The notes beneath the pieces are model-generated. The model was given only the letters and a program-made list of their open reading frames with translations. It had not been told where the DNA came from and made no database searches. A stretch of DNA of 64,000 nt from Candidatus Levyibacteriota bacterium. Lineage in GTDB: Bacteria; Patescibacteriota; Microgenomatia; Levybacterales; UBA12049. The stretch spans positions 2,820-66,819 of the forward strand of contig PJMG01000006.1 of NCBI GenBank assembly GCA_003173895.1, given 5' to 3'. This document shows positions 5,614 to 36,192 of this stretch, piece after piece. Position 1 is the first letter of the stretch, and each line of letters begins with the position of its first letter. Both the position numbers and the translations under genes were made by a program.

Positions 5614-5623
5614 TTTATCATAG

Positions 5624-5662
5624 TTTATAGTATATAGTTCACTGTAAACCATATACTATAAA
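5624..5662 (+). terminator. AT-rich hairpin downstream of the 3202-5613 gene (possible terminator)
   Basis: 12-bp stem tttatagtatat / atatactataaa around a 15-nt loop, 10 nt after the stop; no clear U-tract follows. Confidence 0.3.
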
Positions 5663-5695
5663 TAAGCAGAAGAATAAATTTGGGCTAATCTTACC

Positions 5696-5812
5696 TTGAC
5701 AAAAGATGATCTATTGTACATAATGTACTTACAAAGGCTCTGTTTTCGAATTGTCACCGTATGGTGCGCGTTCCAGGCTTACGTTTGGATAGAAAGCAGA
5801 GTCGTTTTTTAT
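5696..5812 (+). ncRNA. candidate small RNA or bidirectional terminator structure driven by a consensus promoter
   Basis: TTGACA (5696-5701), 17 bp, CATAAT (5719-5724). Then a long-range stem GGCTCTG (5736-5742) / CAGAGTC (5797-5803) encloses an inner hairpin CACCGTATGGTG and is followed by GTTTTTT. No + strand CDS lies downstream. The structure overlaps the stop of the DUF3800 gene and could simply be its terminator. Confidence 0.3.
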
Positions 5813-6426
5813 TTAAATTCCCAAATGTCTTCTATATGTTTCTTACCTAACATATCAAGATAACTTTTATCTTTCTTTGTATAATTAGCATAAATACTTC
5901 CAGCAACCATATCCGCAAGCTGAATAAGTGTATTTTCCTTAGAGTCAACAAATTTGAGATCTATAAATATTTTTTTGCTTCTGTTATTTAATTCACGGCT
6001 TAAGTACACTCGAAGTTGATCTCTTAATGATTTTTCTCCTCGTTTATCAAAACGTAACTTGGCACCTTTAATATGCTCACTGTTTAGTAATACCTGCATG
6101 ATTACGTAATTATAAAAATTTTCTTTATCATTTCTGAGTCTAGGACTGTAAATTATTTTCTTATCAACCACAATAGCTCTTACTTTAAAATCAAATGGTT
6201 GAACTGTAGTCATGAATGCAGTCTTAAATCTTTTGTCTGTCTTATTAAATTTGAATTCGTATAAGTCTGATACCTTAAGTCTTCTCCGTAGTTCCTTTAT
6301 TGCTAATGAAGTTTTTTCTGCTTCTAAATTATCAATAAAAATTACCATTGAAATAATAAATACAGTACTTGAACCTTTTTGAAGCCGGAAACCTGGATCT
6401 CCAGAATCATCTATAAAAATAAGCAT
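5809..6426 (-). CDS. DUF3800 family protein
   Basis: N-terminal MLIFIDDSGDPGF (the DUF3800 IYIDESG-type motif) and C-terminal LIQLADMVAGSI (QxADxxAG motif). Confidence 0.55.
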   Translation of the reverse strand: MLIFIDDSGDPGFRLQKGSSTVFIISMVIFIDNLEAEKTSLAIKELRRRLKVSDLYEFKFNKTDKRFKTAFMTTVQPFDFKVRAIVVDKKIIYSPRLRNDKENFYNYVIMQVLLNSEHIKGAKLRFDKRGEKSLRDQLRVYLSRELNNRSKKIFIDLKFVDSKENTLIQLADMVAGSIYANYTKKDKSYLDMLGKKHIEDIWEFK

Positions 6427-6643
6427 AATAGATATTAGTATACTACTTCGATCTTAATTAGTATTATTTAATTTTTAATTATAGGGTTTAGAAAAATTGT
6501 CTTTTATCAGACAAGAATTATTATCTGATACCCCATAGTTTTAACACAAACAACGGTTATCGAATAGACATTTGTTAAGCTCCAAACACTATATTTAACC
6601 CCATAATGTGTTTATAAAATAACAGCCCAATTTTATTATAGGC

Positions 6644-6672
6644 TTGACGGATGATATGTTTTGATCTATACT
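6644..6672 (+). promoter_or_regulatory. sigma-70-type promoter, leaderless-type, for the 6684 gene
   Basis: TTGACG (6644-6649), 17 bp, TATACT (6667-6672); the ATG at 6684 leaves a predicted 5'UTR of about 5 nt. Confidence 0.4.
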
Positions 6673-6683
6673 TTTCATGAAAA

Positions 6684-8234
6684 ATGGGAGTTGAATCAAA
6701 TATTAATCCATCCCCTACAGAAAACCATTCAAGTAAACCAAATAGAAGATTGCGTTTACCTACACCAATAGCTAGAACCTTAACTAAAGCAGCTTTATAT
6801 GGTACACTTCTTCCAAATCTAATTGCCCCGTTAAAAGGATTAACTCCTAATATTAATACACAAAATTTCTTTTCAGGTAATACTACTAGCTTATCACTTC
6901 AAGATGCAGAATCTCTAGGTATTATAGATTCCAAATCAGCTCTAGCTTCAAATCCTGAATTTATTAAAGAACTTAATGATACCATTACAATTACGGCTCC
7001 CGACACACATATTGAAGTAGATAATAATCAAGTATTTTTAGTTCAAAATGGACAAAAGGTGGGATTAATTGAAGAACATAAATTTTCACACCCAGATGAA
7101 CAATCAGCTGTCTTAGATATTTTTCAAGTACATACTGATCAAAACGGTGATGTAACTATTACTGGTGCAGCAGCTATGGTTCACGTCACAGAAGATGATT
7201 TCCCTGTTGCGCTTGCTGCACAAAATTTTGATTTGCAAAATGTAGGAGGTATTAGTGTTCGTGATATCACTATAAGTACAAATTTTGATTGGAATCAACC
7301 ATTTACTACAAATGGTCAAGAACATGTACTCCGAATTAATGATACAAACGCTTATCAAGACTTTCTTGGGAAAATTAAATATGATAATACTTCCCAAAAA
7401 CTACAATCAGTATTGGTTGGTTATGATAATAACGTAAATGAGGTTATTTTTGCATGCAACGATGGTACAGCAATAGATTTTAATAAACCAGTTACTATTT
7501 ATACTAATGATAAAACTTCGTATATAACGGTAATAAGTGGTGCAGAAGCACAAAAATTGCTGTCTGGTAAAAATGTCATTATCGGAGCAATCGTTGTTAA
7601 TAAGGATTCCAATACTTTTGATAGTCTTGCAGTTATTCAAGAGGGTCGTAATTCTAATGTAGGATATATCCTAGATGGAAAACCACAACATTTTGGGATA
7701 ATAGATCCAAACGTTCTTAATGCTTTAAAATTACCCTATCCAGTTTCTACTATTAAACTTGATTTAAATAACGCATATATAAAAGATGGTAAACGAATAA
7801 TACCAATAGCTGATAGTCCCTACTTTATAGCTGTACCACAAGAATATAAAGTAATATGGACTGATACTGGTGATTTAATTCTTATCGCTACTAATGGTGC
7901 TCAAAACATTTTTTTCAATATGACTTTGGATAATAAACAATTAGATCTAGAATATTCAAATCCAGATACAGACTTAGGTATAGATTTTTTACCTCTAGGT
8001 AGTACTGGTACAGGTGGAATTATAATAAAAAGTGACACATTGCCAAATACTTTTTTCATTAGAGATTTAGCTAGACCATCTCGAGTCACACCTTCAGGAA
8101 CAACAAATAGTCAAAGTGAAAATTTACCCATCATTATAGGAGGATTAGGTTTAGGAGGATTAGGTTTAGAAGAAGTAATTAGACGCTATGTACACCGAAG
8201 AAGTAGAAAAAGTATTTTAAGAAAGCATGGTTAA
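6684..8234 (+). CDS. hypothetical protein (Gly-Leu repeat and basic C-terminus)
   Basis: 516-aa ORF with no motif I recognise. The C-terminus is IIGGLGLGGLGLEE followed by an RRSRK tail. It is probably exported or surface-associated. Confidence 0.4.
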   Translation: MGVESNINPSPTENHSSKPNRRLRLPTPIARTLTKAALYGTLLPNLIAPLKGLTPNINTQNFFSGNTTSLSLQDAESLGIIDSKSALASNPEFIKELNDTITITAPDTHIEVDNNQVFLVQNGQKVGLIEEHKFSHPDEQSAVLDIFQVHTDQNGDVTITGAAAMVHVTEDDFPVALAAQNFDLQNVGGISVRDITISTNFDWNQPFTTNGQEHVLRINDTNAYQDFLGKIKYDNTSQKLQSVLVGYDNNVNEVIFACNDGTAIDFNKPVTIYTNDKTSYITVISGAEAQKLLSGKNVIIGAIVVNKDSNTFDSLAVIQEGRNSNVGYILDGKPQHFGIIDPNVLNALKLPYPVSTIKLDLNNAYIKDGKRIIPIADSPYFIAVPQEYKVIWTDTGDLILIATNGAQNIFFNMTLDNKQLDLEYSNPDTDLGIDFLPLGSTGTGGIIIKSDTLPNTFFIRDLARPSRVTPSGTTNSQSENLPIIIGGLGLGGLGLEEVIRRYVHRRSRKSILRKHG

Positions 8235-8314
8235 ATAGAAAAAATTCAATTTTTATACCTTATAAGTACTCCTTGACTTTCTCTGAAAAAAAATTATAAG
8301 CTAAATAATAGCTA

Positions 8315-9022
8315 ATGAAAAAGAGTAAAAAGCGGGTAAATAAAAAAAATCTTTTATACAAACATCGTCATCATTTTATATCCATATCTCTACTTGTTTT
8401 AGCTTTAGTTTTAATGATTTTTCCACGTTTAAATATTACGAATAGCGCTACAGCAAATAATCCAACTATTAGACAACCTTTAGTGTCTGGAAAATGTGAT
8501 GGTATCCATGCTACACAGTCTTTTGCTTGGAATCCTACATTATCTGGTAAATATATAGTAGTTTATGGCGTTGGAAGTAATTTTAGCTGGATTAGAACTA
8601 CAGCAACTTCCGCTACTGCTACTGTATCTACCGTTTGTTCTCCAGAAAGTAGTTGTTATGGTAAAACAGGATTCGTAAAAATTGCTAATGATGATGGAAA
8701 AGGTAACTATGGTACTGTTATACATTTTACTGTGGCTAAATGTGTGAATAGACAACCTATTACTTCCTCAAATGATTGTAAATTACATCCTGGAGGAATT
8801 TGTGTAGCTCTTAAAAATCCAAATGGTACATGGAAATATCATAGCTGTGCTCAAGCAGGACATCCGGGATATAATGTAGATCCAGGAGATCCATTCTGTG
8901 ATGGAGATTTTAATCATTATTGTTGCTTTCCATCAACTTCCTCTACCCCTAAACCTACAGCAACTCCTACACCATTTCATAAATATGTCCCAATAGGACC
9001 TGGCACTCTTAGAACACTCTAG
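8315..9022 (+). CDS. secreted or membrane-anchored Cys-rich protein with a Thr/Pro linker
   Basis: Basic N-terminus plus TM/signal segment (ISISLLVLALVLMIF), about 12 Cys, and a TPKPTATPTP linker. Confidence 0.4.
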   Translation: MKKSKKRVNKKNLLYKHRHHFISISLLVLALVLMIFPRLNITNSATANNPTIRQPLVSGKCDGIHATQSFAWNPTLSGKYIVVYGVGSNFSWIRTTATSATATVSTVCSPESSCYGKTGFVKIANDDGKGNYGTVIHFTVAKCVNRQPITSSNDCKLHPGGICVALKNPNGTWKYHSCAQAGHPGYNVDPGDPFCDGDFNHYCCFPSTSSTPKPTATPTPFHKYVPIGPGTLRTL

Positions 9023-9094
9023 AATATTTGTGTAGTTATCCTATATAACAGCTTTTTATTGACAATCAATCTAAAAATTAGCTAGCATGATAGT

Positions 9095-9781
9095 ATGGTA
9101 GAAAATGCTGCCCAATCAGTTTATATTCAACCAGAAAAAAACACTACTAGTAAAATTAAAATTATTTTACTCATATCCTTCATACTTTTAATGTGCCTAT
9201 CAATTATTGCTATTTTGTTCTTTATCCACCCTAAGCAGAATACACTCAATACAATAACTAACCAATCACCAAATTCATCAAAAGATCCTACCCAGCAAAT
9301 AAACCTATCTATGCATCAATACCTCACTCAGTGGGTAAATGCACCATATATACCATCTGATACACAATCAAATCTAGTCAAAAATAATAACACCTACTCA
9401 CTTATGTGGCGACGAATAAGTGATATTATCTTAGGAAGACTTATTTTTACTCTTTATTCAAATAATACATTTGACGCTCAACTAAGTATACATTCTAGTA
9501 AGAAAATTGATGTGCTCAATGCTCAACTTGCAAATAGTATAAGTAATATTTACTTTAATCTCAAATCTCCTGTATCATGGAATTGTGGAGAAAATACAAC
9601 AATGGAATTATGTACAAGTTTACTAAAAGAGAATAATGTTCCTTATGAACTTACAGTATATAAATTGCAAGCATTGCAAAATGATGAATTAATTGTGTTA
9701 TGTTCTCTTTCCGAACAAAATCCATTATATGGAACAAAATATTTTTGTTTAGAGAATGATGAAAAACAAATACTTAAATAA
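9095..9781 (+). CDS. membrane-anchored hypothetical protein
   Basis: N-terminal TM segment (IKIILLISFILLMCLSIIAILFFI); the 3' end overlaps the next gene by 26 bp. Confidence 0.4.
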   Translation: MVENAAQSVYIQPEKNTTSKIKIILLISFILLMCLSIIAILFFIHPKQNTLNTITNQSPNSSKDPTQQINLSMHQYLTQWVNAPYIPSDTQSNLVKNNNTYSLMWRRISDIILGRLIFTLYSNNTFDAQLSIHSSKKIDVLNAQLANSISNIYFNLKSPVSWNCGENTTMELCTSLLKENNVPYELTVYKLQALQNDELIVLCSLSEQNPLYGTKYFCLENDEKQILK

Positions 9782-12290
9782 TAAATTGGTTTTTATATTA
9801 GGTGTATGCTTTCTGCTTATATGCATGTTTGTGGCTATACCAAAAAAAGCGCAGGCACAACCTGCATGTAATTATGGGTTAGGTGGAAGCTGTGAGGTCA
9901 CATGTCCGAATGGTACAGGTTCGGCAGGGATTCAAGATTGTCCTCAGATTGGCGGAGGAATCAGCGAACAATGTTGTGTTGCTTTTCAATATGATTGTGA
10001 TAGTGGTACAGGACCAGGGTATTGTAATAGTCCTAATCAACAGTGTATCCTTACAAATGGATATTTCTATTCTTGTCAAACAACTTGTAACGGTACTTGC
10101 TTTTCTGGAAATGGATGTCCAGGAGGATATTCTCAATCAGGTTCTTGTGCTCTACGCACAAGTCAAAATTCACCTTTAATACAACGCACTTGTTGTGTAG
10201 CTAATGGTGGTGGACCAACTCCCCCTCCTACTTGTAATGGGCAAACGGTTTGTGGAGGGTGGGTAAATCCAGGAGCTAATACTACTTGTGCTGGAAATAA
10301 TTCTCATAGAAATTGTACTACCACTTTTACTAACTGTACTCAAAGTAGCTTTACTCAATATCGTACAGTTAATAGCTGTACAGCAGGACATACTTGTTAT
10401 ACCGATGGTACTTGTCATTTAACTAATTGCACTACTGGTGAAGTAAATTGTGGTGCTTGTGGAGGAGGTACTCAACCTGCCAATACATGTAATAATACTA
10501 ATTCTAATCCTGGAGGTAGAACCTGTCATCATAACGGTCCTGCAGGCTGTCTGAATCAAGTAACTTTTCGAGCTACTGACTGTTCATATTCATATAATAC
10601 CTGTAATAACACATATACATGTCCTGCTGGAAGTACAGGTCATACAAACTGTACTACTACTTTAACAGTACGTTTATTTATAGATTATAACCATAACGGA
10701 GTTAAAGATGGTGAAGATCCTTACTACACTGCTGCAAATGTATCAGTTAGATTGGCGTGGAATGGAGGTAGTAATACCTCAGCCTTTGATAATACAGGAA
10801 CTCATACTTTTACAGTCCAGTCCAATAATTACACACTTTCACTAGTAGGAGTCCCAGGAAATTATAGAATTATCAGTAGGAATCCATATCCTATTGGCAT
10901 GGGCCCTGCTGCGACTGTAAATCTGGCTATTACTCCACTATATTCTATTTCAGGAACTGTTTATGATGATACTAATAAAAATAAAATATTTGATCCTAAT
11001 TGTGGAAATCCTAACCCTTCTCTTTGTGATCATGGAGTAAATCAAGGAGGAGTTACTATGGTTTTTAAAGATGATGGATCTAAAACTACGGCTGCTATAA
11101 ATGGAGATGGTACATTTAATTCTGGTACTACACTCGAATCAGGAACTTATACTGTGAATTATACTTTGCCTAATGGTAATGAATGGGAAATGTCTTATCC
11201 TATACCTGCTACATTAATCATAGATGTAGGTAAACCAGGAACTTCTCGCCCCTGTAATGATGGAACCTATAATGATGTAGCTTGTGATGGAACTGGTAAC
11301 ATAACAGGTGCTGACTTTGGTATTACGAATGAATATCCTTCTCATGTAGGAATCTGTACTGATCAGAGAGATGATAATGGTTTTACCGATCCCTTACCTC
11401 AACCTCCTGGTTCTACGGCTGCCTGTGGAAACTATTCTCTAAATGGTACCTCTTATCCACTGGTAATGAGTTATGCAGATATTTGTCCCACTAATGCTGG
11501 TACAGGTATAATTTTTTCAGGCAATCAGGATCCATTTTTTGGTCAAGGAGCAGCCTCTAAAACAAATTGGAGTGTGGGAAATACTACTTATCCTGAAAAT
11601 TATACACCCGCTCAACCTGGAGTGATAACTACATCTTATGATTATTTAGTGGGATTAGCACAATCTTCAGGAATAGATTTTACTAACCCTAGTAATGAGC
11701 TTATAACTTATTGTGATTTAAATAACTGTACTTTACCCTCGAACTTACCAAATGGTGTTTATTTCGCTGATGGAGATGTTAATTTAAATGCATATACTTT
11801 TCCAAGTAATAAAGAATATGTAATTTTAGTGAATGGAAATTTAACTATAAATGGAAATATCTTACTTCCTACAGGATCAGATGCTATTTTTGCAGTTAGC
11901 GGAAATATTATTATTCCACCGACTGTGGGAGAAACTGATCCTACATCATCTGACGCTGATATCGAAGGACTCTACTCTGCTGGGGGATCAGTTCTGATAG
12001 AATCTGCTGCTACTCCCATTCAACCATGTAACAATGACGCTAGTGCTATCGATAAAAGATTAAATATTTATGGTAGTATGAATGCTAATACTAAACAAGT
12101 AGGCGGATCTGTCCAGAATCAGAGAGATCTTTGTGTCTCTGATGTCATTTGTCCTACTTATATGGTTAGTATCGGTGATGGAAATCCTGATGGAAATAGA
12201 GTCGGCGCAGGCACTGGTGTTTCATATATTCTTAATGCTCCCCAATTCATCATGCATAAGAATTATTTCTACCAGGAAGTAAACCCATAA
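9756..12290 (+). CDS. large secreted Cys-, Gly-, Thr- and Asn-rich surface protein
   Basis: Signal peptide ending AQAQ. The N-terminal ~300 aa are extremely Cys-rich (CxxC, CC pairs); the C-terminal half looks like a beta-rich domain. 844 aa. Confidence 0.5.
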   Translation: MMKNKYLNNKLVFILGVCFLLICMFVAIPKKAQAQPACNYGLGGSCEVTCPNGTGSAGIQDCPQIGGGISEQCCVAFQYDCDSGTGPGYCNSPNQQCILTNGYFYSCQTTCNGTCFSGNGCPGGYSQSGSCALRTSQNSPLIQRTCCVANGGGPTPPPTCNGQTVCGGWVNPGANTTCAGNNSHRNCTTTFTNCTQSSFTQYRTVNSCTAGHTCYTDGTCHLTNCTTGEVNCGACGGGTQPANTCNNTNSNPGGRTCHHNGPAGCLNQVTFRATDCSYSYNTCNNTYTCPAGSTGHTNCTTTLTVRLFIDYNHNGVKDGEDPYYTAANVSVRLAWNGGSNTSAFDNTGTHTFTVQSNNYTLSLVGVPGNYRIISRNPYPIGMGPAATVNLAITPLYSISGTVYDDTNKNKIFDPNCGNPNPSLCDHGVNQGGVTMVFKDDGSKTTAAINGDGTFNSGTTLESGTYTVNYTLPNGNEWEMSYPIPATLIIDVGKPGTSRPCNDGTYNDVACDGTGNITGADFGITNEYPSHVGICTDQRDDNGFTDPLPQPPGSTAACGNYSLNGTSYPLVMSYADICPTNAGTGIIFSGNQDPFFGQGAASKTNWSVGNTTYPENYTPAQPGVITTSYDYLVGLAQSSGIDFTNPSNELITYCDLNNCTLPSNLPNGVYFADGDVNLNAYTFPSNKEYVILVNGNLTINGNILLPTGSDAIFAVSGNIIIPPTVGETDPTSSDADIEGLYSAGGSVLIESAATPIQPCNNDASAIDKRLNIYGSMNANTKQVGGSVQNQRDLCVSDVICPTYMVSIGDGNPDGNRVGAGTGVSYILNAPQFIMHKNYFYQEVNP

Positions 12291-12303
12291 AAAAATTAAT
12301 CTC

Positions 12304-12414
12304 TGTCATCCTGAGTGACCCGCTTCGCCGAAGCGATAGCGAGGCGAGAACGAAAAATCTTTATCTTGGAAAGACTTAAGTATATAGATCCTTCGCTGAG
12401 GCTCAGGATGACAT
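12304..12414. repeat. MITE-like element family 1, full ~111-bp copy with TGTCATCCTGAG / CTCAGGATGACA terminal inverted repeats
   Basis: tgtcatcctgagtgacccgcttcgccgaagcgatagcgaggcgaga...gatccttcgctgaggctcaggatgaca. GC-rich, intergenic between convergent genes. Confidence 0.7.
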
Positions 12415-12419
12415 ATTAT

Positions 12420-12971
12420 TTATTTTTTCATTAAAGTGAAGTTGAGGTTAGAGGGGATTTCGTTTTTATTAGAATCTAACATTTTTAATTCTGTATTATT
12501 TACTTTTAAATAATATTCCGTCTGATTAGAGTTATTCGGATTTAGTTGATAAATCAAAGCATTAGGATTATTTTTCATTCCATTTGTATAAGTCCAATTC
12601 CCCACTTCATCAAAAGGTTTTACATTTCTACCTAAATAAACTAATTCCAAGCTATAAGTCGTGGGTTTTAAGGTATTAGGATTTTGATAAAGAGTTAACG
12701 TAGTTTGAATTCCTTCACAGTCAGCGCAAGGGAATTTACCAGTATAAATTCCTACTATATTCGAATTAGCATTTTTAGTAGGAGCAAAAATAGTTTTATG
12801 TGCTAAGAGGAAGATTAAAAATCCAAAAATAATAACTAGAACCACGATTAAAATCTTAAAATTCTTATTTAATTCTCTTTTTAGAAAATTATTATTATTT
12901 TGTTTAGAAATCACTTTCTTTTTAGCAGAAGAATTTTTAATATTTTTATTTTTTTTAATTTCCTTTTTCAT
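12420..12971 (-). CDS. NlpE N-terminal-domain-like (copper-resistance lipoprotein-like) membrane-anchored protein
   Basis: Lys-rich N-terminus, one TM segment, then FPCADCEGIQTTLTLYQN, which matches the CxxC core of the NlpE N-terminal domain. Confidence 0.45.
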   Translation of the reverse strand: MKKEIKKNKNIKNSSAKKKVISKQNNNNFLKRELNKNFKILIVVLVIIFGFLIFLLAHKTIFAPTKNANSNIVGIYTGKFPCADCEGIQTTLTLYQNPNTLKPTTYSLELVYLGRNVKPFDEVGNWTYTNGMKNNPNALIYQLNPNNSNQTEYYLKVNNTELKMLDSNKNEIPSNLNFTLMKK

Positions 12972-12987
12972 TTGAACTTTTGCCTGT

Positions 12988-13019
12988 CCGCCTTAGCTTT
13001 AGCGATGGCGGAATTTTTT
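12988..13019 (+). terminator. GC hairpin plus T-tract (terminator-like; possibly a degenerate family-1 fragment)
   Basis: CCGCC ttagctttagcgat GGCGG aattttttc; it resembles the internal agcgatagcgaggcg segment of the 12304 copy. Confidence 0.3.
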
Positions 13020-13083
13020 CATTTTAATCTCTATATTTATCAAAGTATATTTTTACATAATTTGCAATAGATAATTAGGAAAT

Positions 13084-13112
13084 GAGATTCTTCGTTTCAC
13101 TTAGAATGACAA
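13084..13112. repeat. family-1 repeat unit (GATTCTTCG...TTAGAATGACAA)
   Basis: gagattcttcgtttcacttagaatgacaa, similar to the units at 33590 and 42051. Confidence 0.45.
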
Positions 13113-13175
13113 AAGATAAAGCAAGTAGGAATGTACTTTTAAGTAGCAAAATACATGCTACGAGCTGAGTATAAA

Positions 13176-13202
13176 GATCCTTTCGCTGAAGCTCAGGATG
13201 AC
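13176..13202. repeat. family-1 repeat unit (GATCCTTTCGCTGAAGCTCAGGATGAC)
   Basis: A near copy of the right arm of the 12304 element. Confidence 0.55.
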
Positions 13203-13227
13203 GAAAATAGTTTATAATGACAAGAAT

Positions 13228-14724
13228 TTATTGGCAGGCGAATTGGACGGGTGGAGATAAGGGAGAAAAATTAGCAGAATTAGCTGAGGTAGAATAAGAA
13301 TATTGCGCATAATAAGTAGCACCAGTGGTAACGATATAGCCAGTAGTTAGAGATTGAGACTGAGTAGGATTAGCAGGATTAAGTGTAGTATTTAAAACCT
13401 GATTTCCTTGACTCGCGTATGTCATCACTAAATTATAGCTTTGAGCGTTTTGTAAATTAGACTGCGTATTATAATTTATAGTCACTTGCCAATTACCATT
13501 TTGCTGACCATTACAGGAAACATTAATAGTCGATCCACTAGGCGCTGATAACTGCTGCTGCGCATTAATAGTAAGTAAATTATTAGCAGATGGCGCTGTG
13601 AGAGTAAGAATATTTGATTGAGAGTAAGGCTGACCATTAGACCATAAATAAGCTTGAACATCATAAGACTGACCTGAATTAGCATTATTCCAAACCCAAC
13701 TTACCCCATCAGTGGCTGAAATATTTCCATTTATTTGATTAAAAGTACCTGTCCCTGTAGGACGAGTCGCTAACGTTATATAAGAATTAGGAGGAATGCT
13801 ACCATTTATATTTATAGTTCCTGAAATACCTGTAATAGCTGGTGCAGGTGGATTAGCTGTGGAACTAATAGCCAAATTAATATTGGATGAAGGCGCTGTT
13901 AAAGTTTGTAAACTACTACTGCTAATCAAAGATCCAGTACTACTTATTAAATTAGCTTGTATTTGATAAGTTTGACCTGAAATAGCACTACTCCACGACC
14001 AATTCACGCCATCTGTAGCAGACAGATTAGTCACTGCATTAATTAAGTTATTCGAATTATTTTGCTCAACCACTATATTAATATAGCTACCTGCAGGGAT
14101 ATAACCATCTAAATGAACATTTCCATTGATGGATGTGTTAGTAGTTTGAGGTGATTTTTGTTCTGAAACCAATGGTAAAACTATAGTATCAGCTGGTGCA
14201 GAGACAGAATTTATAGATGACTGTTCTATTACTTTTCCGCTTACCTTAATAGTGGCTTTAATATCATAGTTAGTACCACTATCAGCATCACTCCAATCCC
14301 AAGGAATATTACCACTTTGCGGCACTAATCCACTCACCACATCACTAAATTCAGCTTTACCACTAGGTCTAGCAGCTATAGCTAAGTACGAACCTGCTGG
14401 TGCATAACCTTCGAAATTTATTACACCAGAAATACTAGCAGGTGGCGCAGGTGTAGGTGTGATTATTTGTGTTTGATTTTTAGTAAAATATGTAAGACCA
14501 TTTTTACTATTAAAAAATATTAACCATACAATTGCGACTATTAAAATTATACTCACTACTCCTAAGAGTATAAGTAGTGGATTTAAAAACTTATTTTCCT
14601 TCTCTTCTTCTGTTTCAGTTGATGTGGAAGGTGGAGTTACTGGTGGAGGTGGTGTTTGTACAGGCTCCGTTGATATAATTGGAGCCGAATTATTTAAATT
14701 ATTATTTCCATCAGAGGGTTGCAT
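13228..14724 (-). CDS. membrane-anchored surface protein with three tandem ~90-aa repeats
   Basis: Pro/Thr-rich N-terminus, one TM segment, then three tandem repeats of the pattern I(S/N)G.I...GY.PAGSY......SG.....W.W..A.SG..Y.....L. Confidence 0.5.
   Translation of the reverse strand: MQPSDGNNNLNNSAPIISTEPVQTPPPPVTPPSTSTETEEEKENKFLNPLLILLGVVSIILIVAIVWLIFFNSKNGLTYFTKNQTQIITPTPAPPASISGVINFEGYAPAGSYLAIAARPSGKAEFSDVVSGLVPQSGNIPWDWSDADSGTNYDIKATIKVSGKVIEQSSINSVSAPADTIVLPLVSEQKSPQTTNTSINGNVHLDGYIPAGSYINIVVEQNNSNNLINAVTNLSATDGVNWSWSSAISGQTYQIQANLISSTGSLISSSSLQTLTAPSSNINLAISSTANPPAPAITGISGTININGSIPPNSYITLATRPTGTGTFNQINGNISATDGVSWVWNNANSGQSYDVQAYLWSNGQPYSQSNILTLTAPSANNLLTINAQQQLSAPSGSTINVSCNGQQNGNWQVTINYNTQSNLQNAQSYNLVMTYASQGNQVLNTTLNPANPTQSQSLTTGYIVTTGATYYAQYSYSTSANSANFSPLSPPVQFACQ
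13600..14445. repeat. three tandem ~270-bp coding repeats (diverged at the DNA level) inside the 13228-14724 gene
   Basis: The protein-level periodicity (ISGVINFEGYAPAGSY... / INGNVHLDGYIPAGSY... / ISGTININGSIPPNSY...) is visible by eye. I placed the DNA coordinates by mapping protein residues ~95-375 back onto the minus-strand gene (codon n starts at 14724 - 3(n-1)). Confidence 0.45.
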
Positions 14725-14776
14725 TATTTAATAATGGCTGATTAACAACTGAAGTGTCAAGAGTTAAGAAAATTAC

Positions 14777-14974
14777 TTAAAGTACGTTTATTCTTTTATT
14801 AATTTTATGAGAATGAGATACTGTAGGTTTTATTAATTCTCTTCTTTTACATTCTTCATCATGTTCTAAAAGTAAATCACTCTTTTTAAGAAGTGAACTT
14901 GCGAAGCGTTCAGGTTTACCTGAAAAAACTCTTAGTTGTTTTCCACATTTTTGACAAATAAGTAAAGCTTGCAT
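14777..14974 (-). CDS. small CxxC-containing hypothetical protein
   Basis: 65 aa with ICQKCGKQ and EECKRR; weak support. Confidence 0.25.
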   Translation of the reverse strand: MQALLICQKCGKQLRVFSGKPERFASSLLKKSDLLLEHDEECKRRELIKPTVSHSHKINKRINVL

Positions 14975-15140
14975 AAAAGTATAAATAAAATATATCTTAA
15001 TAAGTATTCTATGTCAATAGATTGTCGCCAAAAAAATGACATCATTCAATGTGTGTGTGTTTTTATCTAGACAATAATTCTTTTAACAGTGAGTTATAAC
15101 ATGTACAAACATTTTTAATATAGTTATAATACCCTTATTC

Positions 15141-15926
15141 ATGAGTAAAATTATTGATTATCTAGCCAAACTCGAACTCTCAGATATGGAAGCCCGCTCT
15201 TATTTGAAACTCCTGGAAACTGGTCCTATAACTGTCAGTGAGTTTGCTCGCTTAATGAATATTAGACGAACTACAGCTTATCTTTATACAGATCCATTAG
15301 TAAGTAAGGGTTTAGTCATAAAAATAGTTAAAGGTAGTAAAAAACTTATCGCTCCTACACCTCCTGAAAACATAGAAGGGTTAATTGAACAGAAATTAAA
15401 TACAGCTCAATCTCTAAAAGAGACATTTCCCAAAATATTAGAAGAAATTAAGAATGAATATCAAATATTCCAAGATAATACTAATGTAGAAATTAAATTT
15501 TATAAGGGGATATATCATGCTAGAAATATTTATTTAGAAGCATTAAAAGCAGATGAATTTCGATCATACATGAAAATTGATAAAAGAGAACCTTTATTCC
15601 CTAGTAATGCTAGTGTGTTTAGTGAGGCTTTTAAAGAGAATAATAAACTTAAAATATGGGAGATTATTTATGATCCTGAATCTTCAGCAGTACCGTCTAA
15701 AGAATCTAGATCTCATATAGGTAGATATTTTTATAAATATATGCCAAAAGGTAAAAAATTAAGTTCTGAAGATATTCTTATTTATGATGGAAAAGTCGCT
15801 GTTATTAATTTTAGAGGAGGTAAAACTAGTATAGTTCTACAAAGTAAGGATTTATATAATAATTTTAAAGAAATATTTGAACTTTTATGGGATGTGCTTC
15901 CAGAACCTCCTAATCCAGATCTATAA
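15141..15926 (+). CDS. TrmB-family transcriptional regulator
   Basis: N-terminal wHTH LSDMEARSYLKLLETGPITVSEFARLMNIRRTTAYLYTDPLVSKGLV, typical of TrmB; a C-terminal effector-domain-sized region follows. Confidence 0.6.
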   Translation: MSKIIDYLAKLELSDMEARSYLKLLETGPITVSEFARLMNIRRTTAYLYTDPLVSKGLVIKIVKGSKKLIAPTPPENIEGLIEQKLNTAQSLKETFPKILEEIKNEYQIFQDNTNVEIKFYKGIYHARNIYLEALKADEFRSYMKIDKREPLFPSNASVFSEAFKENNKLKIWEIIYDPESSAVPSKESRSHIGRYFYKYMPKGKKLSSEDILIYDGKVAVINFRGGKTSIVLQSKDLYNNFKEIFELLWDVLPEPPNPDL

Positions 15927-15940
15927 TATAATTTATTCAT

Positions 15941-16714
15941 CTACAAGAGAGGTTTTTGAGAATAGACTAAAGAATAAGTAGTAAAACCGTTACTCTTTCT
16001 TTTGGGATATATTTTAAGAAAGGATTTTACTAATGCGCTTTTTAATTCTTCTTTTTGTTCTTTATTTATATGTGCACTTCTACTAACGTTTAAGACATAA
16101 TTAGCAATAATATCTAAAGGCGCACTTGTCTTTATGGAAATTTCTTTTTTTTGTGGAGATTTTAAATTTGTTTTAGCACTTTTTAAATCTTCTAAGAATT
16201 GTGGGCAAGTCCATAATCCCCACTCTCCTCTATCTATACCATATTTATCAAAAGTTTCTTTAATGACATCTTTTAGAGGGATATCCCATTCATACATTCT
16301 CCAACCAATACATAATACCCCACCGGGTTTGAGAGCTTTAGCACAACGTTTAATAATTTCTTGGGGATTGGAGAATAAATGAAATGATTCAAATGCAATG
16401 ATAAGGTTATATTTATTAACTCCAAAATCAAAATCATCTACAGATTTATGATGCCAAATTACTTGTTTACTTTCATCTTTGGCTTTAGCCATTTCAATCA
16501 TTTTTTTCGATATATCAATTCCCTCAATAGAATGAGTAAATTTAGTTAAGGCTAGAGGTAAATCTCCGGAACCACACCCAAGATCAATAATGGTATCATT
16601 TGATTTAATATTAAAGGTTTTACCTATGAGATTTATATACTTTTCAGGCAATAAAGGAGTAAACGTGTAATATTCTTCAGCAATTGTATCAAACATTTGT
16701 ACTTTCTCTTGCAT
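15941..16714 (-). CDS. class I SAM-dependent methyltransferase
   Basis: Motif I IIDLGCGSGDLPLAL, post-I acidic IEGIDIS, motif LKPGGVLCI. Confidence 0.75.
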   Translation of the reverse strand: MQEKVQMFDTIAEEYYTFTPLLPEKYINLIGKTFNIKSNDTIIDLGCGSGDLPLALTKFTHSIEGIDISKKMIEMAKAKDESKQVIWHHKSVDDFDFGVNKYNLIIAFESFHLFSNPQEIIKRCAKALKPGGVLCIGWRMYEWDIPLKDVIKETFDKYGIDRGEWGLWTCPQFLEDLKSAKTNLKSPQKKEISIKTSAPLDIIANYVLNVSRSAHINKEQKEELKSALVKSFLKIYPKRKSNGFTTYSLVYSQKPLL

Positions 16715-16912
16715 ATATAAAATTATAACTATTTATTTAATAGGATAATATCTGTTACCTATATAAAAATTATTTAAGTTGTTTTTATAGAAACAATAAA
16801 TAGAAATAAATTTTACTATTTGTAAAATAAAAAGTCTACATTTAAGAATTTTATAATCCTCATTTGACAACTTTTAAGTTTTCTATCATAGTGATTTTAG
16901 GGGGTGATTTAA

Positions 16913-17125
16913 TTGATAAAATTATTTTTGAAACTGCGAAAAAAAGTAATTAGTTATTTAAAATTACATGCAGAATTTAATGCTTTCATTCATGCATTGG
17001 GTGGAATTGGAGTTGGAATTTTAATAGCCTCTCCCCTAGCTAATCCACATCCTGTTAGATGGGCATTGGTTTTCTTAGGAATTAGTTTAGCCGGACATTT
17101 ATACGCTTTAGGCGCTAAAAAGTAA
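16913..17125 (+). CDS. small membrane protein (TTG start with strong SD)
   Basis: AGGGGGTGA SD 7 nt before TTG. TM segment GGIGVGILIASPLA. The stop overlaps the next ATG (TAATG). Confidence 0.4.
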   Translation: MIKLFLKLRKKVISYLKLHAEFNAFIHALGGIGVGILIASPLANPHPVRWALVFLGISLAGHLYALGAKK

Positions 17126-17934
17126 TGAAAAAAATAATTTTAATAATTATTAGTATTTTACTACTAGTAGGAATTTATTTTGTAATATTTAATCAATTTA
17201 TTTTTAAAAATCAAACTGGGAATAATGTTTTATCACCTACCCAACTAACTTCTTTACAGAACATAAACTGGAGTAAAGCGCAAGAAACGTCTCAACAAAC
17301 ATTTTATGGATTAATTTCAGGTAGACTTTATACTTTTAGTATATCTTCAAATGAAGCACAAATACAAACATTCGAAAATAAAGCAGAATTATCTAAATTA
17401 GGTTTTATTTTAGATTCTAATTTAGCAGCCAGCGGACCAGGTTCTAATATATGGGGTTATAAAAAAGTAACAAATGGGAAAACGCAAATTATTCTTTTTT
17501 CCTATCGAACTAGACCTAGTTCTAATAAACCCGATGAGCCATTACAGTTTAACTGTCCATGCGCTGTAGATTTAAATATTTTTATTAGTGATTCTTTTTC
17601 TATGACTACTTCTTTAACTCCAACTTCTTCAACATTACCAAATCCTGCATCTGAAAATTGTATTCAAAAAGGTGGAACTTTAAGAATTTTAAAGCGTGGT
17701 GATGGTGGCGAATATGGCTTATGTGATTTTGGAGATAATATGGCATGTGAAGAATGGGCTTTGCTTCGTGGACAATGTCCAGTAGGAGGTTTAAAAACTA
17801 CTGGCTATGATAATATTCAACAAATGTACTGTGCGTGGTTAGGTGGAAAAACACTAGCAGTACCTAATGCTAAATGTACTCTACCTTCTGGAAAAACCTG
17901 TAGTGTGGATGATGTTTATAATGGCAAATGTTAG
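17125..17934 (+). CDS. membrane-anchored protein with a C-terminal DUF333 (putative hemolysin)-like Cys-rich domain
   Basis: N-terminal TM segment. The C-terminus PASENCIQKGGTLRIL...GLCDFGDNMACEEWALLRGQC resembles the DUF333 pattern. Confidence 0.35.
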   Translation: MKKIILIIISILLLVGIYFVIFNQFIFKNQTGNNVLSPTQLTSLQNINWSKAQETSQQTFYGLISGRLYTFSISSNEAQIQTFENKAELSKLGFILDSNLAASGPGSNIWGYKKVTNGKTQIILFSYRTRPSSNKPDEPLQFNCPCAVDLNIFISDSFSMTTSLTPTSSTLPNPASENCIQKGGTLRILKRGDGGEYGLCDFGDNMACEEWALLRGQCPVGGLKTTGYDNIQQMYCAWLGGKTLAVPNAKCTLPSGKTCSVDDVYNGKC

Positions 17935-18194
17935 AGGTAAATTTCATCTATATAACACCAAGTAAATTCTTCTCCAGGTGAAACTGATTTCATAATAGGA
18001 TGATTAGTCGCTTTAAAATGTTTGGTAGCGTGTTTATTTTTAGATTGATCACAGCAACCCACATGACCACAGGTTAAACATTGTCTTAAATTTACCCAAG
18101 TATCACCAGTTTTTATACACTCTTCACAAAGAGTAGTATCATGGGGTGGAAAATCTTTAATTTGATCTTTATGAGTACAAACTTTATCCGCCAT
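17931..18194 (-). CDS. UBP-type zinc finger (zf-UBP) domain protein
   Basis: C..H.....C..C......W..L..CL.CGHVGCC......H...H......H......W.CY matches the Znf-UBP ligand pattern. Confidence 0.7.
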   Translation of the reverse strand: MADKVCTHKDQIKDFPPHDTTLCEECIKTGDTWVNLRQCLTCGHVGCCDQSKNKHATKHFKATNHPIMKSVSPGEEFTWCYIDEIYL

Positions 18195-18249
18195 AAATTT
18201 AATGTAATCCTAAATTATAGAAATTGCAATTATTAAAGTATAAGATATT

Positions 18250-19032
18250 TTATCTATCTCGTCTCGAAGATAATTGTAGAAAAAGATTATTTTGATCTTC
18301 AGTTTTTCTTAAATCTTGATTTCCAAAGTTCTTAAATGTTATTTGTTTACTAAAATCTCTTCCGTACATTATTATAAATTCCTCTAATGCTATGTGCATT
18401 GGTTTAATATAACCTTCTAACGTATATGCTTCTAATTCAAAAGTTCTACTTGAATCTATCCCGGCTCTATTTTCAACTCTTTGTCTACATATTTCCGGTG
18501 GAACCTGAAGATAAACTAACGTAGTATTTAAAAAAGAATTTTCTGTAATTCTTTTAAAATTAAAATCAAACTTATTCCATTGATTTTCCGTTATTCTACC
18601 ATTATTAAAGTGAGATCTAAGATATGTCCAACTACCAACTAGTCCAAAATCTATAAGAGGTGTTTTATTTTCTAGTTTAGCTTTTTCTATTTGTTCTCGT
18701 AATAAATTTACTCTTTTACTAAATAAACTTATTTCAAAATCAAAAATTATTTGTTGATTTTTGGCTAAATCATCAGCATCAGTATATTTTTTAGTATTTA
18801 TTAAATCCAATGATTTTAAATAGTTTATTCTTTGAATTTCTGGTAAAGTTAAAAAGAGTTCATCTGAAGCAATATTATAAAAATCTGATATTTTACTTAA
18901 TGGCTCATCAATTGTACTCTTACCACTTCCTATATTACCTATTAATAATATAGATGCGTTCGGAGAAAGTGGAGATAACTCTTCTAATCGATTAATCTTT
19001 ATTTCAGAGTATTTCTGCGCATCTATAGCCAT
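18250..19032 (-). CDS. deoxynucleoside kinase family protein
   Basis: P-loop ILLIGNIGSGKST, typical of the dNK/dCK/dGK family; lid-like VPPEICRQRVENRAGIDSSRTFE. Confidence 0.55.
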   Translation of the reverse strand: MAIDAQKYSEIKINRLEELSPLSPNASILLIGNIGSGKSTIDEPLSKISDFYNIASDELFLTLPEIQRINYLKSLDLINTKKYTDADDLAKNQQIIFDFEISLFSKRVNLLREQIEKAKLENKTPLIDFGLVGSWTYLRSHFNNGRITENQWNKFDFNFKRITENSFLNTTLVYLQVPPEICRQRVENRAGIDSSRTFELEAYTLEGYIKPMHIALEEFIIMYGRDFSKQITFKNFGNQDLRKTEDQNNLFLQLSSRRDR

Positions 19033-19072
19033 AAGCGCAAATGTATCATATTATTCTAGGATAAGCAAGGAT

Positions 19073-20590
19073 TTACCTCTTTCTATTATTAATAGTAAAA
19101 AATGATATAACACTGCTTAAAAATGCTAGAGCTGCATTAATTCCCATAGCCCACTTATAACTATTTATAAATGATCTATCAATAATTTCCTTAGCTATCA
19201 TTTTATTTTCCATATTCAAGTTTTTAGGTATATTAATACCTCCTAATTTATTAGCTTGAGATAAAATTATCTGCTTTGTATTTATATTCAAACTTGAATT
19301 TAAGATTTGGGTTTTTAAACTGTTTTCAAAAAGTGATAATGCGATCGCTCCTAATAGTGCTACTGCGAAAAGTCCAGCTATTCTAGCCACAGCATTATTT
19401 ACTCCTGAGGCTGCTCCACTGTATTTTTCATCCACTGCTAGTGCTGATTTAGTTAAAGGCGCGATAACAATCGACATTCCTAAACCAAATAGAATAAGTC
19501 CAGGTAAAATTTGAGTGAAATAATTTACATTTAAACCGACTAGAGTTAATAAAAACATACCAATCGAAACTATAAAAGGCCCTACGATCATAGGAAATCT
19601 TGGGCCTATTTTATCTGCTAAGGTACCACCATATCCTGATAAAAAAGTAATCAATAAAATGCTAGGGAGTGTGGCAAATCCTGCCTCAAGTGGGGTGTAA
19701 CCTTGAATTTGTTGAAGATTTAAAACTAAGAAAAATACTACTCCAGAAAGTGCAAAATATAAAAATAATGTGGCTAAGTTAGCGCCTGTCACAAGTGGTG
19801 ATTTAAAAATACTAAGTGGAACTAATGGTTCTTTTTCTCGAGTTTGCCAGAATATAAAAGTTATAAATAAGATTAAGCCCAATGTTAAACTTACTAATAT
19901 AAATGGATTACTCCATCCTAGATCTGATCCAGAAATAAGCCCATAAGTTAAACCTAAAAGTGAAAGAAAAATTAAAATAGAACCTATTAAATCAATTTTA
20001 GTTGATTCCAGATTTCGACTCTCAGGAATATATTTATAAGCGAGAATCAAGGCAATAATTCCTAATGGAATATTAATATAAAAAATAGATGGCCAATTAA
20101 AATATTGAACTAAGTAGCCTCCTAAAAATGGTCCTAATGCTGCTACTCCACCCGCAAATCCTGACCAGATTCCAATGGCTCTTCCTCTAAAATCTTTTTT
20201 AAATGAAGAATCAATAATACTTAAACTCCCTGGAACCATCATAGCTCCACCAATTCCTTGTAGTGCTCGAAAAAAAGCTAATTCTGTAATGGAAGTGGAA
20301 ATGCTACAAAGAAATGAAGAAAAAATAAAAAGACCAATTCCATACATAAAAATTCTTTTTCTACCAAAACGATCGCCTAAACTACCTGCGATTAAAATAA
20401 GCGAACATAACATTAAAGCATATCCATTAATTACCCACTGGATTTCCGAAAGGCTGGCATTAAGTTTATTTTGCAGTGTAGGAATAGCTATATTAACTAC
20501 AGTCCCATCTAAGAATGCCATTCCAGAAGCTAAAATAGTAGCGATCAATAATAGCTTACCTTCAATATTTTTAGTAGTATATTGTTTCAT
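19073..20590 (-). CDS. MFS transporter, DHA2 (EmrB/QacA) family, 14 TMS
   Basis: GSLGDRFGRKR motif after TM2; about 14 hydrophobic segments; 505 aa. Confidence 0.8.
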   Translation of the reverse strand: MKQYTTKNIEGKLLLIATILASGMAFLDGTVVNIAIPTLQNKLNASLSEIQWVINGYALMLCSLILIAGSLGDRFGRKRIFMYGIGLFIFSSFLCSISTSITELAFFRALQGIGGAMMVPGSLSIIDSSFKKDFRGRAIGIWSGFAGGVAALGPFLGGYLVQYFNWPSIFYINIPLGIIALILAYKYIPESRNLESTKIDLIGSILIFLSLLGLTYGLISGSDLGWSNPFILVSLTLGLILFITFIFWQTREKEPLVPLSIFKSPLVTGANLATLFLYFALSGVVFFLVLNLQQIQGYTPLEAGFATLPSILLITFLSGYGGTLADKIGPRFPMIVGPFIVSIGMFLLTLVGLNVNYFTQILPGLILFGLGMSIVIAPLTKSALAVDEKYSGAASGVNNAVARIAGLFAVALLGAIALSLFENSLKTQILNSSLNINTKQIILSQANKLGGINIPKNLNMENKMIAKEIIDRSFINSYKWAMGINAALAFLSSVISFFTINNRKR

Positions 20591-20591
20591 T

Positions 20592-21866: not shown

Positions 21867-21951
21867 GGGATTAGTTTAATTGTGGAATACTTAAGAATAA
21901 ATTGCAAGAAAAGGAAAGAGAAAAAAATTGTTTATTAAATTTCTAAAAGAC

Positions 21952-22009
21952 GAGATTCTTCTCTCTCGCCTCGATTCGATTCGGCGAAGCGGGTCGTTCA
22001 GAATGACAA
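21952..22009. repeat. MITE-like family 1 copy, left half, in inverted orientation
   Basis: The reverse complement reads tgtcattctgaacgacccgcttcgccgaatcgaatcgaggcgagagagaagaatctc, about 85% identical to the left half of the 12304 copy. Confidence 0.65.
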
Positions 22010-22014
22010 AGAGT

Positions 22015-22605
22015 TTAGGAGGACATGGTGGTTTCTTCTCTAGCTGTTTTTAACATTTTTGCAAACCATATTAATTGTTCTAACATATTTTTAGCCGTAT
22101 CCTCTGCACTTTCAAAAGCACCAGGTTTTAAATTTCCATTCTCATCTACCATAGTCCAAGAAAAAGGAAAATGAACTCCATTTCGGATAGGTACCATTTG
22201 TAATTCTATGACTACTTGTCTTAATTGCTGTACGGCGCGAGTTCCTGCTGCAATTCCTCCATAACTTATAAAAGCTACTGGTTTATTATGCCATTGGGCA
22301 AAAACATAATCGATAGCATTTTTTAAAACCGCACTGTAACCATGATTATATTCAGGAGTTACCATAATATATGCATCACCCTCACCTATTTTTTCCGCCC
22401 ATTTGGCTGCTAAATCTAAAGTGTATTTTCCTTTAGAAGCATTTGGAGACATAGGTTCATTAAAAAAAGGAAGCGGCCAATTTCTTAAATCAATTAACTC
22501 CGCTTCTACTCCCTCCATTTTAGATAATTTCTCAAAAATCCACTTTGCAGGTTTTTCTGAAAATCTATTTGGTCGAGTCGATCCAATGATTACTTGAATT
22601 TTCAT
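22015..22605 (-). CDS. NADPH-dependent FMN reductase (flavodoxin-like fold oxidoreductase)
   Basis: MKIQVIIGSTRPNRFS...YIMVTPEYNHGYSAVLKNAIDY, typical of the FMN_red family. Confidence 0.75.
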   Translation of the reverse strand: MKIQVIIGSTRPNRFSEKPAKWIFEKLSKMEGVEAELIDLRNWPLPFFNEPMSPNASKGKYTLDLAAKWAEKIGEGDAYIMVTPEYNHGYSAVLKNAIDYVFAQWHNKPVAFISYGGIAAGTRAVQQLRQVVIELQMVPIRNGVHFPFSWTMVDENGNLKPGAFESAEDTAKNMLEQLIWFAKMLKTAREETTMSS

Positions 22606-22716
22606 AAGAATATATTTAAAATATCACTAATACTTTATTTTGTAAAGTACTTACAAAAAATAAAGTATCAACATATAACTATATTAAAAATTAGTAGTAA
22701 ATTATAAACATAAAAT

Positions 22717-33589: not shown

Positions 33590-33611
33590 GATCCTTCGTT
33601 CCACTCAGGCC
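33590..33611. repeat. family-1 repeat unit (AGATCCTTCGTTCCACTCAGGC)
   Basis: A fragment matching the unit consensus; intergenic. Confidence 0.45.
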
Positions 33612-33631
33612 ATAGCTCTTGAGCCCCAGAC

Positions 33632-36150: not shown

Positions 36151-36192
36151 ATCAGTTTACTATGTTACCGACTTTAGTAACAAGTATTAAGA

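Follow-up and report, generated by a model that had tools for sequence, protein, structure and literature searches.

Tagged hairpins in the window

The window, by which we mean the whole 64-kb stretch of Patescibacterium DNA analysed here, has a GC content of 31.7%, and a set of short repeats stands out from it as local GC peaks of about 55%. An earlier, sequence-only reading of this DNA had described a dispersed family with ten or more loci. The family is real, and related sequence lies at every coordinate then given; we count nine loci, intergenic or intragenic, with about 14 units, and a doubtful tenth locus at 12986–13010. Units are oriented and share one general build: a (C/T)GTC tag, AT, a stem, a loop, the returning stem, AT and a C. 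The tag reads TGTC or CGTC at 4644, 4704, 12304, 12413, 13111, 13203, 22008 and 40682 and is damaged at 33611 and 49011. The first base of the tail is an invariant C, followed by TA, CC, TC or TT. Truncation or drift towards AT affects several units, which may be dead. No Rfam family covers the units at its gathering threshold (a sub-threshold FtrB match on the intragenic pair reaches 36 bits against a cut-off of 66), and a tRNA search found none present.

Units of the canonical type are confined to one intragenic pair, in which two GC-rich hairpins, each a perfect 8-bp stem, have loops of 4 and 5 nt and tags that face outward. The left half (4644–4671, + strand; 8-bp stem, 4-nt loop) reads TGTC-ATTCCCGC-GAAG-GCGGGAAT-CTAT and the right half (4676–4704, − strand) reads TGTC-ATCCCCGA-CCTGA-TCGGGGAT-CCCT. 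Both match the published search motif for Ssn-related motifs (SRM), HGTCWYN(0-2)YYVSBRHN(0-5)WNVSBRGN(0-2)RNCYNB (PMC11893778), and are its only two matches in the window, against 0.04 expected; the left half is identical to the NTS consensus CGTCATTCCCGCGMAVGCGGGAATCYRG save for the first and last base. As DNA, the pair (4644–4704) folds at −18 kcal/mol (z −5.1). It lies in frame within a Wzy_C/TPR gene (3202–5613, 803 aa), where it encodes an insert of 21 residues, IVIPAKAGIYAEGSPIRSGMT, that contains VIPAKAGI. In an alignment with 40 homologues, the insert falls within a hypervariable loop that separates conserved hydrophobic segments, and the two closest homologues (P0002 and P0003, 59% identity) are without it. 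The named relatives of the protein all come from Patescibacteria (Levybacteria, Microgenomates and Saccharimonadales), which places the source genome in the candidate phyla radiation. The intragenic copy proposed earlier at 4644–4704 is thus within the gene and in frame, and belongs to a different subfamily from the other copies.

The remaining units are of a second type, here called GA-type, with the pattern GTCATCCTGAG-loop-CGAAGGATC, written out as GTCAT(C/T)CTGAG-loop-CGAAG(G/A)ATC. Five base pairs, beginning with A-T and T-A, are followed by conserved tandem G·A/A·G mismatches at positions 6 and 7, two further base pairs and a loop of 3–6 nt. The apices in the window are mostly GC-CTCA-GC, GT-TTCA-AC, GT-GAA-AC and GT-GGA-AC.

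The GA-type copy of 111 bp, the pair at 12304–12414, consists of two inverted units with tags outward, and the perfect 12-nt terminal inverted repeats at its ends bear out the full copy of about 111 bp first described there. Its left arm (12304–12359, + strand) is a long unit with an inner hairpin, TGTCATCCTGAG-[35-nt inner hairpin region]-CGAAAAATC; its right arm (12387–12413, − strand) is a short unit, TGTCATCCTGAGCCTCAGCGAAGGATC, the best GA-type copy in the window. The pair lies between convergent genes that end at 12290 (+) and 12420 (−). A second long unit, at 21954–22008 (− strand), reads TGTCATTCTGAA-[inner region]-GAGAAGAATC. It had been reported as an inverted half-copy at 21952–22009 lying after the Nramp gene: the half-copy stands, as the unit ends at 22008 and a 37-nt arm is 86% identical to the left half of 12304–12414, and its setting is to be corrected, because it begins 6 nt past the stop codon of an FMN reductase gene, upstream of the minus-strand Nramp gene.

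Shorter units include an AT-drifted one at 13086–13111 (−, TGTCATTCTAAGTGAAACGAAGAATC), one at 13176–13203 (−, CGTCATCCTGAGCTTCAGCGAAAGGATC) and one with a damaged tag at 33588–33611 (−, ..GGCCTGAGTGGAACGAAGGATCTT), 21 nt past a histidine kinase stop codon. The doubtful, diverged unit at 12986–13010 (+, TGTC-CGCCTTAG-CTTTAG-CGATGGCG-G) was found by a generic tag-plus-stem scan only, with 6 of 8 positions paired, and is missed by the profile described below. At 40682–40727, a full unit (40682–40708, +) and an inverted 5′ half (40715–40727, −) fill the junction between the ArsR and AHSA1 genes. The locus at 42040–42116 (−) is an array of 5′ halves, in which extra halves at 42107–42116 and 42078–42094 lie upstream of a unit with an enlarged loop (42040–42074); the copy previously placed at 42051–42118 is therefore real, reaches 42040 and comprises a single unit with two additional 5′ halves in front of it. 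A degenerate unit at 49011–49035 (+, AGTCCTGAGCGCAGTCGAAGGAATC) fills the 27-nt gap from the FtsX permease gene to the ABC ATPase gene.

Placement was read from the ORF listing and Pfam scans of the window. All eight extragenic loci begin 0–21 nt past a stop codon, which agrees with the placement at gene ends and operon junctions stated earlier, and for six single units the strand that runs from tag to tail is the sense strand. Three units share a 256-bp gap 3′ of a 498-aa gene and before an NlpE-like gene, and one extragenic locus lies directly 3′ of a 114-aa gene. The only transposase gene in the window, of the IS1595 type (36264–37136), has ends unrelated to the units.

The family is enriched in the window over chance. 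The sequence TGTCATCCTGAG occurs ten times with up to two mismatches, against 2.9 expected, and none of 100 shuffles reached ten; the 3′ 9-mer CGAAGGATC alone shows no enrichment in the window (6 versus 6.1 expected), and the whole combined unit occurs 4 times versus 0 in 200 shuffles. An nhmmer profile built from units of other genomes only, then run on the window, recovered seven copies: 12413− (E 1e-9, the best), 40682+ (2e-6), 13203− (7e-6), 33609− (1e-3), 12303+ (5′ half, 6e-3), 49013+ (0.014) and 42074− (0.04). The long units at 12304–12359 and 21954–22008 are paralogues, sharing inner sequence across the 37-nt arm, and the units at 12413− and 40682+ are alike over 31 nt at 90%, tail CTATAT included, so copying inside the source genome has happened.

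Structure and distribution of the GA-type unit

As DNA, the 111-bp pair folds at −22.7 kcal/mol (z −4.1), and as RNA its two strands fold at −43 and −47 kcal/mol (z −5); T-rich runs lie close by, a few bases past it. Single units fold weakly in either form (z between −1.1 and +0.8 over both, and between −1.1 and +0.5 for the GA-type copies as DNA), because nearest-neighbour folding meets a stem of just 5 bp and then G·A/A·G. Folding as RNA, proposed earlier as a check, is therefore strong for the 12304–12414 pair and weak for single units, and the description of the family as GC-rich palindromes has to be dropped for the short units, which are 5-bp stems with non-canonical G·A pairs and not strong palindromes.

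Covariation among units from other genomes supports the hairpin. With the pattern relaxed at the three inner stem positions, 280 of 301 units among the matches listed are perfectly complementary, with at least 8 triplet types. We repeated the test on 26 distinct by-catch units that lie outside the retrieval pattern, the one set from which retrieval bias is removed. Compensatory change occurs at all 5 variable pairs in this set, and 98.4% of cells are paired versus 83.7% in shuffles (0 of 500 equal it) and 19–54% when the partner columns are slid. The G·A/A·G mismatches, the GTC and the 3′ C are invariant columns in the same 26 units. The covariation together with these columns shows that the GA-type unit is a structurally constrained hairpin whose non-canonical core is conserved. 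Its commonest apices in other genomes, among the matches listed, are GCGCAGC, GCGAAGC and GCGTAGC.

In a species-representative genome collection, the exact pattern GTCATCCTGAG N4-8 CGAAGGATC occurs in at least 120 stretches from about 15 phyla. Among the matches listed, the hosts include Chloroflexota, Acidobacteriota, Bacillota, Bacteroidota, Planctomycetota, Verrucomicrobiota and Omnitrophota, as well as Gemmatimonadota, Nitrospirota, Cyanobacteria, several proteobacterial classes and several Patescibacteria. A lineage-specific MITE is ruled out by this recurrence of the same 20 specified bases in at least 120 genomes of many phyla. Viral contigs contribute a further 115 stretches that hold a GA-type unit; none of these has an Ssn-like ORF, and there is thus no sign in them of phages carrying a unit–nuclease cassette. 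No unit was found in L001, the closest related contig (31% GC, 17 kb); given its shortness and distance, it cannot serve to define empty sites.

The following counts are drawn from 120 loci picked for holding a GA-type unit, and are biased accordingly; they are also undercounts, because the unit regular expression matches lazily (the upstream unit in L122, for example, was missed though visible in the flank). Among the matches listed, pairs are mostly inverted with tags outward (78, versus 18 tandem and 15 inward; median spacer 28 nt), the arrangement of the three tags-outward pairs in the window at 4644–4704, 12304–12414 and 40682–40727. Single units past stop codons show a mild bias, 30 sense versus 15 antisense, among the same matches.

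Extra 5′ halves precede 20 of 152 units in the listed matches and follow none, and no 3′ half is duplicated among these 152 units. There are one to three such copies, 18–24 nt upstream and in the same orientation, each consisting of the tag and the 5′ arm ending in GAGC; the window locus at 42040–42116 is built likewise. What is duplicated starts a few bases 5′ of the tag, close to where cutting has been reported, and stops at the hairpin apex. These one-sided arrays look like the footprint of a copying or repair process, and they provide a sequence-level handle on how such hairpins get copied.

Small GIY-YIG nucleases and a proposed origin of the copies

When the ORFs of the 120 listed loci were clustered, small GIY-YIG proteins emerged as the sole family of which no member lies more than 300 bp from a unit: they occur near units in 5 loci from 5 lineages and are absent from 4238 distant ORFs, among the matches listed. 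(A strict GIY-YIG regular expression gave 2 neighbours; BLAST clustering with an HMM gave 5.) In L117, L087 and L008 units with outward tags stand on both sides of the gene; the L117 protein has 96 aa (gene 3374–3664). Five further homologues, picked by protein similarity alone, each have GA-type units to either side. Units therefore lie beside the GIY-YIG gene in 10 of 10 loci, and on both sides within about 150 nt in 8 of 10, the exceptions being L072 and also L070, whose gene is cut by the end of the locus.

The neighbouring proteins are single-domain, 92–105 aa long and carry PF01541 only, and a profile built from them collects about 8000 clusters of proteins of the same size and domain content. 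NCBIfam and PDB sequence searches placed them no finer than GIY-YIG; the best PDB sequence match, 1zg2, a UPF0213 GIY-YIG protein, is weak (E 0.002). The window itself contains no GIY-YIG gene. As the units flank these genes, GA-type units appear to relate to the small nucleases as NTS relates to SsnA. Neither the GA-type units of the window nor any of 152 elsewhere, among the matches listed, fits the SRM motif, so the suggested recognition of GA-type hairpins by Ssn-type enzymes draws on gene neighbourhood.

The window repeats belong to a known family, already described as CGTC-tagged REPs and as NTS/SRM; what is new is the GA-type variant and the host lineage. We consider it probable that they represent this pan-bacterial family of tagged hairpins in the capacity of single-strand DNA recognition hairpins of Ssn-like nucleases. 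The signal would be the hairpin unit with its unpaired (C/T)GTC tag, a stem that begins with A-T and T-A, a short loop and a C after the stem. Where DNA becomes transiently single-stranded, during replication, transformation or repair, the hairpin would be bound by a cognate Ssn-type GIY-YIG nuclease of about 95 aa, which would cut the DNA a few bases 5′ of the tag. Unit–nuclease gene–unit cassettes, with tags outward, may act like insertion sequences, and we infer that a nuclease of this kind acts on, and spreads, the copies in the source organism.

The inverted pairs of the window look like gene-less derivatives of such a unit–nuclease–unit cassette. In the proposed scheme 12304–12414, 4644–4704 and 40682–40727 would be non-autonomous derivatives, and single units would be solo or decayed copies. 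Copies would persist where they are least harmful, either just 3′ of stop codons or within a membrane protein at a loop that varies. Transcribed pairs would form stable RNA hairpins and may secondarily affect 3′ ends; such an effect on transcript ends is possible at 12304–12414, because the pair folds into long RNA hairpins and T-rich runs are near.

We also entertain, as a tentative and rather doubtful extension, that the GA-type hairpin is the end-signal of a distinct, pan-bacterial group of selfish single-strand DNA elements copied by the nuclease of about 95 aa, with the 5′-half arrays as copying footprints. If true, a selfish class driven by GIY-YIG enzymes would extend to the tiny genomes of Patescibacteria, and the question raised in 2013 of what moves CGTC repeats would have an answer.

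Other explanations have to be weighed against the nuclease-recognition reading. Units might chiefly be host RNA elements that are selected at gene ends for terminating transcription or stabilising mRNA 3′ ends, as the eight extragenic loci 0–21 nt past stop codons, the sense orientation of six single units and of 30 units versus 15 in other genomes (among the matches listed), and the RNA folds of 12304–12414 with their nearby T-rich runs would lead one to expect. We regard this as unlikely: single units fold weakly, no terminator-like site coincides with any unit (0 of 15 such sites in a consensus scan of 4000–23000 and 33000–50000), and a host-specific signal would hardly keep 20 identical bases over about 15 phyla or flank nuclease genes. 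In addition, SsnA has no RNA interaction (PMC11893778). The role as terminators suggested from the first reading is not supported, as none of the copies matches a terminator consensus. An RNA-element role can also be a secondary effect of nuclease-recognition hairpins instead of a rival to them.

Short tagged hairpins in inverted pairs, extragenic after genes and without target duplication, are also the look of REP/REPIN elements moved by a RAYT (a Y1 HUH transposase of the IS200/IS605 kind), and a Bacteroidetes RAYT subclass, 2.6, has been reported with atypical REPs. Such an origin is very improbable here: the tag is (C/T)GTC and not GTAG, Pfam scans of ORFs of at least 80 aa found no Y1 transposase in the window, neighbour clustering in the loci among the matches listed gave GIY-YIG and no Y1 family, and Di Nocera et al. 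found no RAYT adjoining CGTC repeats (PMC3733652).

The units had initially been called MITE-like, and the inverted pairs at 12304–12414, 4644–4704 and 40682–40727 do have terminal inverted repeats and no ORF. We give scant credence to a classical MITE, meaning a DDE-type insertion sequence reduced by deletion and cut and pasted in trans, even with the IS1595-type transposase gene at 36264–37136 in the same window. That copy has no unit-like inverted repeats at its ends, most units are single and not bounded by terminal inverted repeats, and the unit, conserved from phylum to phylum, has GIY-YIG genes and not DDE transposases between its copies. Target-site duplications, for which a 2-bp TA had been suggested, are missing from the three window pairs (flanks tc/ta, at/aa and aa/at) and from 78 pairs among the matches listed, in which direct repeats are at chance level for k = 2–5 at offsets of 0–9. 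The MITE comparison therefore holds for the terminal repeats and lack of coding capacity of the inverted pairs, and breaks down over target duplications, a related transposase and the predominance of single units.

Chance GC-rich hairpins of no common origin have a negligible claim, and for the core copies are refuted, even though CGAAGGATC alone is not enriched and some copies are short and weak (E 0.01–0.04), by the combined motif (4 versus 0 in 200 shuffles), the foreign profile (down to E 1e-9) and the paralogous long units (86% over 37 nt).

What appeared to be a private MITE thus becomes a recognisable family with a candidate protein partner, and the assignment accounts both for the GC-rich islands at gene ends and for an odd 21-residue insert in a membrane protein. 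Its occurrence in a Patescibacterium widens the known host range to streamlined, episymbiotic genomes. Because the GA-type is widespread, flanks Ssn-like genes and escapes the SRM motif, surveys based on that motif undercount these systems. As Ssn enzymes are under development as site-specific single-strand DNA cutters, a new class of hairpin suggests new specificities.

Comparison with known hairpin repeats

At the level of the apex, the commonest GA-type units elsewhere carry the mini-hairpin DNA motif GCGNAGC, known as d(GCGNAGC) (PMC13037366), whereas the apices in the window are mostly other short loops. REP/REPIN–RAYT systems resemble the GA-type loci in having a tagged single-strand DNA hairpin, inverted doublets, a flanked single-copy enzyme gene and no target duplication; they differ in the GTAG tag and the HUH Y1 enzyme, in place of which we find GIY-YIG.

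The intragenic pair recalls the RPE elements of Rickettsia conorii, in which RPE-4 and RPE-6 have been equated with CGTC-4 and CGTC-1. It too is an in-frame hairpin insertion in a gene, and its VIPAKAGI is identical to that of R. conorii RC0483 and RC0657; the same peptide is listed for intragenic CGTC-1 units of that species, equated with RPE-6 (PMC3733652). Here, however, the host is a free-living or episymbiotic Patescibacterium, with one intragenic copy in 64 kb.

The CGTC-tagged REPs, families CGTC-1 to CGTC-4 (Di Nocera, De Gregorio and Rocco 2013, BMC Genomics 14:522; PMC3733652), have a CGTC or TGTC tag, stems of 8–9 bp starting with A-T and T-A, loops of 4–5 nt and a 3-nt tail with the consensus CCA. 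Inverted dimers predominate, intragenic copies occur, and the families are known from five phyla, including Bacteroidetes, with no associated transposase and no adjoining RAYT (PMC3733652). The window units share the tag, the A-T/T-A stem start, short loops, a short unpaired tail, inverted pairs and in-frame intragenic copies, and no transposase adjoins any of them; the halves of the intragenic pair match CGTC-1 (8 bp, 4-nt loop) and CGTC-2 (8 bp, 5-nt loop). The GA-type, by contrast, breaks the rule of a perfect 8–9-bp stem and has a tail of C followed by T, C or A, not CCA, and the host phylum is outside the five listed in PMC3733652.

The NTS and SRM systems (Chenal et al. 2025, Nat Commun 16:2388; PMC11893778) offer the comparison with an enzyme. 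In Neisseria, the single-domain GIY-YIG nuclease SsnA (94 aa) binds NTS, which is a subset of dRS3, in the form of single-stranded DNA; it cuts just one strand, upstream of the hairpin, is inactive on duplex DNA or RNA, and limits transformation (PMC11893778). The GTC upstream and the C after the palindrome are critical positions in NTS, and SRM lie near 71% of ssnA homologues, often on both sides; mobility through an Ssn nuclease is a hypothesis in that paper as well (PMC11893778). The GA-type differs in its 5-bp stem, tandem G·A and mini-hairpin, in place of the perfect 8-bp GC-rich stem of NTS/SRM, and its sequence was found in none of the papers searched. Patescibacteria are absent from the main text of PMC11893778, and the window has no ssn gene. 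The two nevertheless agree in an oriented hairpin with GTC just upstream and C just after the palindrome, in dispersed copies that number in the hundreds and are mostly extragenic and, in other genomes, in units placed on both sides of a single-domain GIY-YIG gene of about 95 aa.

Upstream arrays of 5′ halves

The 5′ half of the hairpin unit (the tag plus the 5′ arm, ending in GAGC) is in places tandemly repeated with a period of about 19–21 nt, always on one side, upstream of a full unit. One such array lies at 42040–42116 on the minus strand of the window, and others occur at loci of other genomes, including L042, L086, L060, L012 and L121. Among 152 units in the set of loci retrieved from other genomes, an extra 5′ half was found upstream of 20 and downstream of none. 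These arrays may be the footprint of the mode by which the hairpins are copied; no mention of them was found in the papers describing the CGTC-tagged repeats (PMC3733652) and the Ssn nuclease (PMC11893778).

Genes in the window and at related loci

Two IS1595-family DDE transposase genes, one in the window (36264–37136, plus strand) and a second on the related contig L001 (3921–4802), are both unrelated to the hairpin repeats. In another genome (L126, 1–3279), a gene for an Ssn-like GIY-YIG protein and its flanking units lie inside a type I restriction-modification locus, with HsdM on one side and HsdS on the other.

Near the start of the window, a 748-amino-acid sigma-70 family protein (907–3153, plus strand) carries all of its conserved regions in the last 260 residues, and its N-terminal ~480 residues have no Pfam match. 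A DUF3800-IX RNA motif (Rfam RF02968; 5737–5806, plus strand; 61 bits, E = 7e-11) directly adjoins a gene for a DUF3800 protein on the opposite strand (5809–6426, minus strand). Towards the other end, about 15 successive ORFs span 51212–63825. The minus strand carries 13 of these, and only a single ORF, encoding a cupin (59539–59886), matches a Pfam family; the region may represent an island that is either mobile or specific to the lineage.

The intragenic pair and the loop of its host protein

The intragenic hairpin pair lies within the gene for a Wzy_C/TPR protein (3202–5613). Peptides in the same variable loop of homologues from other Patescibacteria (P0032, P0039 and P0040) include ESGMTRKD, DSGLTRMT and LGITENTGITEN, which, judged from the peptides, look like the translated tag end of similar units. 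The presence of such peptides in these homologues suggests that units may have inserted repeatedly into this loop.

The region over the intragenic pair (4633–4722, plus strand) also gave a sub-threshold match to the Francisella small RNA FtrB (36 bits against a cut-off of 66; E = 0.03). Francisella tularensis is among the strains tabulated in the paper on CGTC-tagged repeats (PMC3733652), so a repeat pair of this kind may also be present within FtrB.
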